Virus record (IMG/VR): IMGVR_UViG_2541047166_000019
Length of the DNA: 6,379 nt
Source: a virus
Lineage: Duplodnaviria > Heunggongvirae > Uroviricota > Caudoviricetes
Strand: one strand, 5' to 3'
Numbering within the stretch: the first letter of the stretch is position 1; the number at the start of each line of letters is the position of its first letter. This document shows, in pieces, positions 1,597-2,608 of the stretch. The position numbers were made by a program, and so were the translations under genes. The notes below the pieces were generated by a model, which made no database searches, was not told the origin of the DNA, and saw nothing but the letters and a program-made list of their open reading frames with translations.

Positions 1597-2608
1597 AAAG
1601 GTGAAAACCGGCAGTTCATCCAGTAAGTCAGTATTGACCTGGCTTGCTGATATGTGCGGTGCCGATTTGTGTGCATACCCGTCTGTATCTGCACTGGCAG
1701 AAGTAACGGAACTGAACAAAAAGACTGTGCAGGACAGCTTACGACACCTGATGGAGATTGGGTTAATTGTTGATACCGGTGAGAGAAAAGGCAGAACAAA
1801 GCAAATTGTGGTGTACCGACTTATCGGTGTAGAAGAAAGTGTTGCCGAGCCTGAATACACCCAAAAACGGGAGTCTTTAAAGGTGGGTAAAATTGGTGCT
1901 GTTAATAAAAACAGTACCGAAAATGGTTATGTTTCAGCACAAAACAGACCCAAAAACAGAACTCTTAGCTGCATGGAAAATAACCAAAGACACCCAAATT
2001 TTCCATCAAAGACACCCAAAAACGGATCACGGAACCCAAAGGAACCCAAAGATCTAAACCCCACACATAACGCACGCGAGAGTGCTCCGACCAGTGAGCA
2101 GGAAGTTTTGTCGTTACAGGCAGCCCCCCCTGTATTCCTGTATGGCCTGAGCGAACCCATCGGAAAATTCCCGATGAGCGATAGCTGGTATCCGTCACGG
2201 GATTTTCGACGACGGGCTGCGTTGTGGGGGATGGCTTTGCCGGAGACAGAATTTACACCTGCTGAACTTGCCGCCTTCCGGGACTACTGGGCAGCGGAGG
2301 GGAAAGTGTTTACGCAGATTCAGTGGGAGCAGAAATTCGCCCGTCACGTAAATCACGTCAGGGCGCAGGTTAAACCAGTCAGCAAAGGGGTAAACCATGC
2401 AGCAGCACCAGGTGGCACCGCATCACGGGCAGTTCAGGAAATTCGGGCAGCACGTGAGCAGTGGGAACGTGAAAACGGATTTATCAGCGACGGAAACGGC
2501 CTGGAAGCTGTGGGAACTCATGGGGGTGGTTTATTCGAACCGCTGGATCCAGAAGAACGGGGCCGCACCTTCGAAGCTCTGGATTGCACAGATTGGCGCG
2601 ATGACTGA
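1568..2608 (+). CDS. Phage replication initiator: N-terminal winged-helix origin-binding domain plus C-terminal DnaT-like domain, 346 aa from ATG 1568
   Basis: The ORF track frame opens at 1493, but the first ATG with an RBS (GGGGGG, 5 nt upstream) is 1568. The N-terminus (SVLTWLADMCGADLCAYPSVSALAEVTELNKKTVQDSLRHLMEIGLIVD) is a replication-protein-type wHTH. The C-terminal segment FPMSDSWYPSRDFRRRAALWGMALPETEFTPAELAAFRDYWAAEGKVFTQIQWEQKFARHV aligns by eye with the C-terminal domain of E. coli DnaT. The 3' end (2397..2608) overlaps the next ORF, so the true stop is uncertain. Confidence 0.8.
   Translation: MSIDALRWAKKVKTGSSSSKSVLTWLADMCGADLCAYPSVSALAEVTELNKKTVQDSLRHLMEIGLIVDTGERKGRTKQIVVYRLIGVEESVAEPEYTQKRESLKVGKIGAVNKNSTENGYVSAQNRPKNRTLSCMENNQRHPNFPSKTPKNGSRNPKEPKDLNPTHNARESAPTSEQEVLSLQAAPPVFLYGLSEPIGKFPMSDSWYPSRDFRRRAALWGMALPETEFTPAELAAFRDYWAAEGKVFTQIQWEQKFARHVNHVRAQVKPVSKGVNHAAAPGGTASRAVQEIRAAREQWERENGFISDGNGLEAVGTHGGGLFEPLDPEERGRTFEALDCTDWRDD
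1857..2050 (+). repeat. Iteron-like direct repeats (core ACCCAAA, six copies), candidate phage origin inside the initiator gene
   Basis: Identical 14-mers ACACCCAAAAACGG at 1857..1870 and 2012..2025. Related copies at 1946..1959 and 1989..1999, and a tandem GGAACCCAAA pair at 2031..2050. An AT-rich stretch (about 1875..1945) lies among them. They encode the low-complexity linker (..NRPKNR..KTPKNG..RNPKEPKD..) between the two initiator domains, as lambda ori does within gene O. Confidence 0.5.

Follow-up and report, generated by a model that had tools for sequence, protein, structure and literature searches.

The 6,379-nucleotide (nt) stretch analysed here (the window; IMG/VR record IMGVR_UViG_2541047166_000019, from a virus of the Caudoviricetes) covers the early region of a lambdoid, Rac-like prophage carried by pathogenic Escherichia coli. 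Within it, the gene for a replication initiator and the gene for a lambda-P-like helicase loader (P) overlap in different reading frames. Comparison across lineages together with structure prediction indicates that this overlap is very probably real and conserved, one DNA stretch encoding parts of both proteins. The initial annotation, which had put the out-of-frame overlap at about 200 nt, left three options, namely that both products share this sequence, that the tail of the initiator is a chance extension, or that an insertion or deletion (indel) has altered one of the genes. We found that the first of these is supported by the conservation of the arrangement across lineages. The lambda-type initiator/loader module itself is known, and a loader of 221 amino acids (aa) already stands in some database entries; the new part is the conserved long dual-coding junction, of which we found no description in the literature searched, whose coverage was incomplete.

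Reading frames across the initiator-loader junction

The open reading frame (ORF) of the initiator lies in frame 2, with a probable start at ATG 1568, and stays open to the TGA at 2606-2608. The loader ORF lies in frame 0, that is, +1 relative to the initiator, and runs from ATG 2397 to 3062, giving an overlap of 212 nt (2397-2608) that is read in two frames. Because an in-frame TAA lies at 2391-2393, ATG 2397 is the earliest possible start of the loader. The ribosome-binding site that had been proposed for this ATG was confirmed as the Shine-Dalgarno (SD)-like sequence AAGGGG, which is separated from the ATG by a 6-nt spacer and provides the loader with an independent start signal within the initiator gene. 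Residue G274 of the initiator, encoded in the AAGGGG segment, is invariant in the alignment of homologues.

To cover an unbiased set, 37 loci were fetched from species-representative genomes, and the 31 intact, non-duplicate ones were analysed. We found that all 31 loci, which come from ~20 genera of Enterobacterales, carry an ATG 78-92 codons upstream of a WPPDL anchor in the loader frame, and an SD-like motif precedes this ATG in 29 of them. The initiator stop likewise lies upstream of the anchor in 31/31 loci, at a distance of 25-97 nt (most commonly 58-61 nt), and the length of the overlap varies between 149 and 227 nt. The same frame relation was found in five Vibrio phages with ~30% identity in P, which keep the upstream ATG and have overlaps of 191-230 nt. 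Furthermore, all 77 usable close relatives in IMG/VR retain both ORFs. Within this set, segregating sites reached 0.135 and 0.203 per nt in the two halves of the overlap and were denser in the flanks, at 0.377 and 0.291. Of 5,426 complete E. coli genomes, at least 1,253 carry the module.

The loader scored 61.2 bits in a Pfam search against PF06992, the lambda P family (cutoff 26; aa 60-188), and matched PHROG 109, 'P-like helicase loader', over aa 19-220 with E = 1.3e-61. Its profile matched the lambda P chains in the PDB (8v9t/9oa1; E = 1e-6); NCBIfam has no model for this loader. In the AlphaFold2 (AF2) model, with a mean predicted local distance difference test (pLDDT) score of 72.6, aa 1-26 are disordered, followed by helices over aa 25-181 and a C-terminal helix at aa 204-217. 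The top three Foldseek hits of this model were chains of lambda P from its complex with DnaB (9oa1; E = 5e-6 to 2e-5), with template modelling (TM) scores of only 0.43-0.50. Lambda P begins with domain I (residues 1-29), a flexible 'lasso' at the N terminus that is probably disordered in solution; the compact domains II (~30-119) and III (~120-192) and domain IV follow (PMC12661323). The loader model has the same four-domain layout. Together, these data identify the protein as a putative lambda-P-like helicase loader and a predicted binding partner of DnaB. Judging by its length, its predicted structure and the alignment with the loader of phage phiV10, the leader (aa 1-30) appears to correspond to domain I of lambda P. 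The similarity to lambda P had initially been placed from near the start of the frame. This stands for the PHROG match, which begins at aa 19, but not for the Pfam match from aa 60 or for the direct BLAST alignment with lambda P, which gave 24% identity over aa 86-193 only and detected no similarity before aa 86.

Full-length homologues of the loader, 212-223 aa long, were found down to 50% identity. In their alignment, the best conserved N-terminal block is AWxLWExMxEIYSNRWxxKNGxxPSxLWIAQIG (aa 35-68), which includes the invariant residues W50, K53, N54, G55, P58 and W62, all encoded upstream of ATG 2601, while the leader is poorly conserved.

The two frames leave different traces along the overlap. 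Entropy at initiator codon positions 1/2/3, calculated from 29 loci, was 1.13/1.02/1.51 in the region that encodes only the initiator, and this normal initiator pattern continued at 2399-2483 (1.15/0.97/1.48). At 2486-2603, the values were ~1.2/0.74/0.55, so that the first position of the initiator codon became the most variable one and the periodicity was that of the P frame. The switch of phase from initiator to P falls near 2486, upstream of ATG 2520. Sites that are formally synonymous for the initiator differed in 0.18 of comparisons in its tail, as compared to 0.57 expected, and those synonymous for P differed in 0.37 in the leader, as compared to 0.58 expected. Thus, one frame governs each half of the overlap, but the subordinate segments are still maintained. 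Signs of selection in both frames are the phase switch, the acidity of the initiator tail (described below) and the reduced polymorphism; for the P leader, they consist of the conserved ATG and SD-like motif, the open frame and a weak signal in composition.

Synonymous resampling provided an estimate of how often such frames stay open by chance. Given the P protein, the initiator frame met its first stop at a median of ~50 nt into the segment and was open to the observed stop in ~15% of resamplings per lineage, yet it is open over 83-155 nt in 22/22 non-redundant lineages. Given the initiator protein, the frame of the P leader was open in ~25% of resamplings per lineage. The resulting products are ~5e-9 over nine clade representatives and 8e-19 over all 22 lineages for the tail, and ~3.5e-6 over nine clades for the leader; they treat lineages as independent, which is only approximately true and tells against taking them at face value. 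The window alone was non-significant, with the leader open in 0.35 and the tail in 0.24 of resamplings. Thus, one 70-codon open +1 frame proves little, because 35% of the window resamplings keep it open, and the open frames gain their significance from the conservation of the arrangement across lineages. As judged from the 31/31 loci, the five Vibrio phages and the resampling, both frames are open beyond chance.

The initiator is predicted to consist of an N-terminal winged-helix-turn-helix (HTH)-like domain, a disordered linker, a DnaT-like single-stranded DNA (ssDNA)-binding domain, a C-terminal helix and an acidic disordered tail. We found that aa 201-267 (nt 2168-2368) match the DnaT domain PF17948 with 61 bits (cutoff 25), which makes the earlier placement of the end of DnaT-like similarity close to 2400 roughly right. 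The NCBIfam DnaT equivalog gave 93 bits, below its cutoff of 201, and the protein is therefore not DnaT itself; the match to HTH_36 was weak (20.9 bits, below the cutoff of 25). In the AF2 model, aa 1-85 form a folded domain of helices and strands, aa 287-302 a helix, and aa 306-346 the disordered tail. The C terminus is kept in homologues down to ~50% identity, with the motifs ASRAVQxIRxAR, GGxLFEPLDxEERG and LDCxDWxDD, and this conservation is partly imposed by the P frame. The tail was, however, more acidic than the P-constrained expectation in 22/22 lineages (mean z = +2.4). For example, the codon for Lys53 of P is almost always AAG, which yields Glu in the initiator frame.

Alternative readings of the loader start and the initiator tail

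Several points weigh against dual coding over the full 212 nt. The support for it is comparative and predicted throughout. The subordinate segments barely constrain the synonymous sites of the partner (0.559 versus 0.605 for the tail and 0.546 versus 0.615 for the leader); the P leader and the initiator tail thus add little mutual constraint, and their exact sequences therefore matter little. The compositional signal in the P leader, measured as hydrophobicity, is weak (z = -0.76). No base pairs were predicted at the loader start site by RNAalifold from 19 loci, and the single-sequence fold gave z = -0.87; a structure-based coupling switch at this site, which we considered, is unsupported by RNA folding. 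Last, Met42 of the loader is nearly invariant, and in approximately half of the loci it is preceded by a TGGGAG-like sequence. This SD-resembling TGGGAG(G) arises from conserved Trp-Glu codons (2503-2522 and homologous positions). A shorter loader isoform starting at Met42 may exist.

Taken further, the conservation of Met42 could mean that ATG 2520 is where the loader starts, in which case the protein would have 180 aa, the overlap would shrink to 89 nt, and the open frame at 2397-2519 would be an untranslated by-product. An ATG at this position in 29/31 loci, 15 of which have the SD-like motif upstream, the many database proteins of 180-181 aa that begin here, and the poorly conserved, predicted disordered leader would all agree with such a start. 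We nevertheless regard it as improbable, since the periodicity of the P frame and the conserved AWxLWE both set in before 2520, at 2486-2498, and Met42 lies in the middle of the first predicted loader helix (aa 25-46), which spans it in the AF2 model. Furthermore, the codon is CTG in two Buttiauxella/Dryocola loci (L022 and L025), whereas the upstream ATG occurs in 31/31 loci and five Vibrio phages, with the SD-like motif in 29/31 loci, and the frame upstream of Met42 is open in every lineage at a chance of ~0.25 each. An orphan P-like gene in Erwinia (L037), which has no upstream initiator, also begins upstream of the Met42 equivalent and retains VWQLWDTM there, and the N-terminal regions of lambda P and phiV10 P are as long as that of the 221-aa form. 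A still later start, ATG 2601 within ATGACTGA, would yield 153 aa by termination-reinitiation coupling and leave the upstream similarity spurious, which the initial annotation had named as the finding that would overturn the overlap. This start is annotated in RefSeq and in the Rac-SA53 record, and the arrangement is similar to the junction of 4 nt (ATGA) in lambda and phi80. However, it would remove the best conserved N-terminal block with its six invariant residues as well as three predicted domain II helices, the codon periodicity upstream of 2601 is in the P phase, and the ATG (Met69) is found in only 21/31 loci and absent from ten. The strong conservation of the P frame upstream in homologue alignments refutes ATG 2601 as the sole loader start, and we give this reading next to no weight.

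The dual-coding arrangement could also fail on the initiator side, if its last ~40 residues (2486-2608) were a functionless read-through that is stop-free by accident. In line with this, the tail is disordered in the AF2 model and barely constrains the synonymous sites of P, the position of the initiator stop varies by lineage (-25 to -97 nt from the anchor), the initiators of PHROG 1032 appear to end near aa 300, and that of phiV10 ends 28 aa after its DnaT domain. An accidental tail is at odds with the 22/22 lineages that remain open at a chance of ~0.15 each and with the excess acidity in every one of them; a similar tail, with EERG and LDxxDW, is moreover found in the Vibrio phages. Thus, we consider a functionless tail unlikely, and the chance extension suggested earlier is mostly rejected. 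A recent indel or sequencing error, or a programmed frameshift that produces an initiator-loader fusion, would account for PHROG 15931, a 482-aa profile that matches both proteins at overlapping profile positions, which suggests fused members, for the fused 385-aa protein P0107, and for a Leclercia locus (L036) in which the frames are swapped inside the overlap. PHROG 15931 is evidently built from fused, frameshifted members. We rejected P0107 and L036 as evidence of frameshifting, because the former (L049) comes from an error-prone long-read assembly with many broken genes nearby and the latter is a single disrupted locus. The frame relation is identical in Enterobacterales and Vibrio phages and in 77/77 usable close relatives, which disposes of the indel option, and the downstream frame has its own conserved SD-like motif and ATG, unlike that of a programmed-frameshift fusion. 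We found no conserved structure in the loader start region, which was the only stretch folded, and slippery motifs were not specifically searched for. An indel, error or frameshift is in our view extremely improbable.

A proposed mechanism and its relation to known replication modules

According to the dual-coding arrangement that we favour, ribosomes would translate the initiator from ATG 1568 to TGA 2606, and other ribosomes would start independently at the SD-like motif and ATG 2397, inside initiator codons 273-277, to produce the 221-aa loader. Each gene would lay its disordered end over the structured segment of its partner. Thus, 2397-2485 would encode the last helix of the initiator together with the disordered leader of the loader, the presumed equivalent of the domain I 'lasso', and 2486-2608 the first domain II helices of the loader together with the disordered acidic tail of the initiator. 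Ribosomes elongating the initiator would cross the loader start site, and the amount of loader made would then depend on, and probably be capped by, translation of the initiator. Such a limit could be useful, given that an excess of lambda P is toxic. In addition, recombination could not separate the two partner-specific segments, the C-terminal half in the initiator and the N-terminal part in the loader, in agreement with the mosaic breakpoints seen near aa 160 of the initiator and aa 93 of the loader. Both the coupling of expression and the linkage of the partner segments are consequences that we infer from the arrangement.

Initiator and loader probably share a single rightward early-operon transcript, as inferred from gene order, because the repressor gene is on the minus strand and the cro-like, ydaT/cII-like, initiator and loader genes are all on the plus strand. 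The mosaic breakpoints delimit an exchangeable unit, with the overlap at its centre, that joins the C-terminal half of the initiator to the first ~92 aa of the loader. In many initiators, the similarity is confined to aa ~160-346 (84-90% identity), and the N-terminal domains in front of it are unrelated, for example, DUF1376 and T5orf172. In lambda, the specificity between O and P resides in the C-terminal part of the former and the N-terminal part of the latter. Residues 156-299 of O have been used as its C-terminal domain (PMC12661323). It is conceivable, albeit doubtful, that the overlap acts as a functional device instead of simply compacting the genome. In this view, ~200 nt would encode both halves of the initiator-loader contact, with the C-terminal helix and acidic tail of the initiator on one side and the lasso and first domain II helices of the loader on the other, and would be inherited as a unit that stays intact through recombination, while ribosomes on the initiator would gate the toxic loader and so fix the proportion of the two proteins. 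Dual coding would then, if this is true, serve to lock a co-evolving protein-protein interface in mosaic phage genomes, and the module would be a conserved instance of it.

The module shares with lambda O/P the early-right gene order, a P-family loader with a four-part layout, and iteron-like repeats inside the initiator gene, as in ori-lambda. In contrast to the overlap described here, lambda O and P overlap by only 4 nt (ATGA), and the initiator, with its HTH-like and DnaT-like domains, is no homologue of lambda O. The C-terminal 130 aa of the loader (aa 93-221) are ~49-50% identical to those of the loaders of phi80 (gp15/gp14 pair), HK639 and mEp237, which belong to a lambdoid initiator-plus-loader module. 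However, the phi80-type junction is 4 nt long, and the N-terminal ~92 aa of its loader, as well as its initiator, are unrelated to those found here; the overlap-encoded part of the loader therefore belongs to a different exchangeable module. The initiator of phiV10 (Uetakevirus) has the same DnaT-like domain (52% identity over 64 aa), and its 261-aa loader is 28% identical, aligns from aa 18 of our loader to the end and has an N-terminal region of equal length. Yet phiV10 has a 4-nt junction and an initiator that lacks the long tail. Thus, a long overlap is no necessary feature of pairs of DnaT-domain initiators and P-type loaders.

The Vibrio phages encode pairs of a lambda-O-like initiator and a loader that share with our module the N-terminal block of P (KLWE...KNG...PS..W) and the frame relation. 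Their initiators have a similar acidic tail with the motifs EERG and LDxxDW, and a different middle part. These loaders are possibly viral relatives of VdhL1/2 (PMC11087808). Some VdhL proteins are ~30% identical to PF06992 proteins, and the same study of Vibrio phage-derived loaders makes no mention of a gene overlap (PMC11087808). YdaU of the K-12 Rac prophage was discarded as a tail-less comparator, being a DUF1376 protein with no significant similarity.

Long out-of-frame overlaps, known as overprinting, are classical in phages and include phiX174 A/B/K and D/E, lambda Rz/Rz1 and the MS2 lysis gene. For overprinted genes, a pattern has been described in which the segment encoded by the subordinate frame is disordered or of low complexity. 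As in those cases, the junction described here would yield two proteins from one DNA stretch, with one frame per half bearing most of the constraint. In contrast to them, it is a partial tail-to-head overlap of two replication partners in a large double-stranded DNA (dsDNA) temperate phage and, unlike with embedded genes, neither gene is new but each extends into the other. A deeply conserved ~200-nt two-frame overlap, reaching from Enterobacterales to Vibrio, very probably exists in the replication module of dsDNA temperate phages. It would offer a clear example of how an overlap is tolerated when disordered ends lie over the structured segments of the partner, and a case of overprinting between two interacting replication proteins. 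It also suggests ideas on the translational coupling of a toxic loader and on the reason for mosaic breakpoints lying within these two genes instead of at their borders.

Locus, annotation and neighbouring genes

Coordinates of the genes and signals are collected in Table 1. The window is 99.7% identical to PPompW prophages and ~92% identical to part of phage Rac-SA53.

Table 1. Genes, start and stop signals and segments of the overlap in the window (6,379 nt)
Feature	Position	Strand	Remarks
DicA-like repressor gene	350-757	minus	
Cro-like gene	834-1061	plus	
YdaT/CII-like gene	1045-1596	plus	
Replication initiator coding sequence (CDS), 346 aa	1568-2608	plus	ORF and domain matches; same coordinates in RefSeq, 'DnaT-like ssDNA-binding domain-containing protein'
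SD-like AAGGGG	2385-2390	plus	within initiator codons 273-275; 6-nt spacer to ATG 2397
Lambda-P-like helicase loader CDS (putative), long form, 221 aa	2397-3062	plus	+1 frame relative to the initiator
Overlap, part A	2397-2485	plus	initiator frame dominant (predicted helix ASRAVQEIRAAREQWERENG); P frame, predicted disordered leader aa 1-30
Overlap, part B	2486-2608	plus	P frame dominant (AWKLWELMGVVYSNRWIQKNGAAPSKLWIAQIG, first predicted domain II helices); initiator frame, predicted acidic disordered tail
Internal ATG, P Met42	2520-2522	plus	start in many 180-181-aa entries; inside predicted helix 25-46
Internal ATG, P Met69	2601-2603	plus	within ATGACTGA; start in RefSeq/Prokaryotic Genome Annotation Pipeline (PGAP) and in the Rac-SA53 record (153 aa)
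Initiator stop TGA	2606-2608	plus	inside P codons 70-71
Internal ATG, P Met82	2640-2642	plus	start in the LC567818 annotation (140 aa)
DUF1627 (ydaW-like) gene	3097-3830		after the loader gene
Predicted P-frame peptide of the loader			MQQHQVAPHHGQFR...
Predicted initiator-frame peptide			...LFEPLDPEERGR...

Four different starts of the loader are in use in databases, at 2640 (140 aa), 2601 (153 aa), 2520 (180-181 aa, in many PGAP entries) and, in some NCBI entries, 2397 (221 aa). In both RefSeq genome records that we examined, 'replication protein P' has 153 aa, a form that lacks domain I and ~40 residues of domain II. Cloning, modelling or classifying the loader from the annotated CDS would consequently use a truncated protein. 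The case points to a systematic error of gene callers that penalise long overlaps, and the long form would correct a start-site error that is widespread.

At least six iteron-like direct repeats, with the core CACCCAAA often followed by AACGG, are located at 1854-2050 inside the initiator gene, where the linker that is disordered in the AF2 model (aa 89-194) is encoded. By analogy with ori-lambda, which lies inside gene O, these repeats are probably the phage replication origin. The initiator ATG 1568 lies inside the 3' end of the ydaT/cII-like ORF, with an overlap of 29 nt; short overlaps therefore occur elsewhere in this operon too. Downstream of the loader, the DUF1627 gene has a premature TAG at codon 18 (3148-3150), the result of a G-to-T change relative to GAG in LC567818. 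This gene is a pseudogene in RefSeq, in a strain that is 100% identical to the window over a 501-nt query (2250-2750). Downstream of the replication module, at 4690-5448, lies a gene of the paa/adfO type whose annotation reads porcine attaching-effacing associated protein; it has a solute-binding-protein fold according to Pfam and represents cargo with no relation to the overlap.

The disrupted Leclercia locus (L036 1786-3147; Leclercia adecarboxylata NCTC13032) carries an indel inside the overlap that swaps the frames and disrupts both genes: the P-frame N terminus enters the initiator tail, and the initiator enters the third frame. It represents either a decayed prophage or an assembly error. 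The orphan P-like gene of Erwinia sp. MMLR14_017 (L037 2471-3040) encodes 189 aa and is flanked by genes for a phosphotransferase system (PTS) transporter and a LysR regulator, with no initiator and no visible prophage context; this could be a helicase loader that was domesticated or persists as a relic. Last, PP818812.1 (L003), named 'Actinobacillus phage vB_Apl-pPE4', carries a module with 92% DNA and 95.5% protein identity to that of the E. coli prophage. This is unexpectedly close for a Pasteurellaceae host, and the host assignment may deserve a check.

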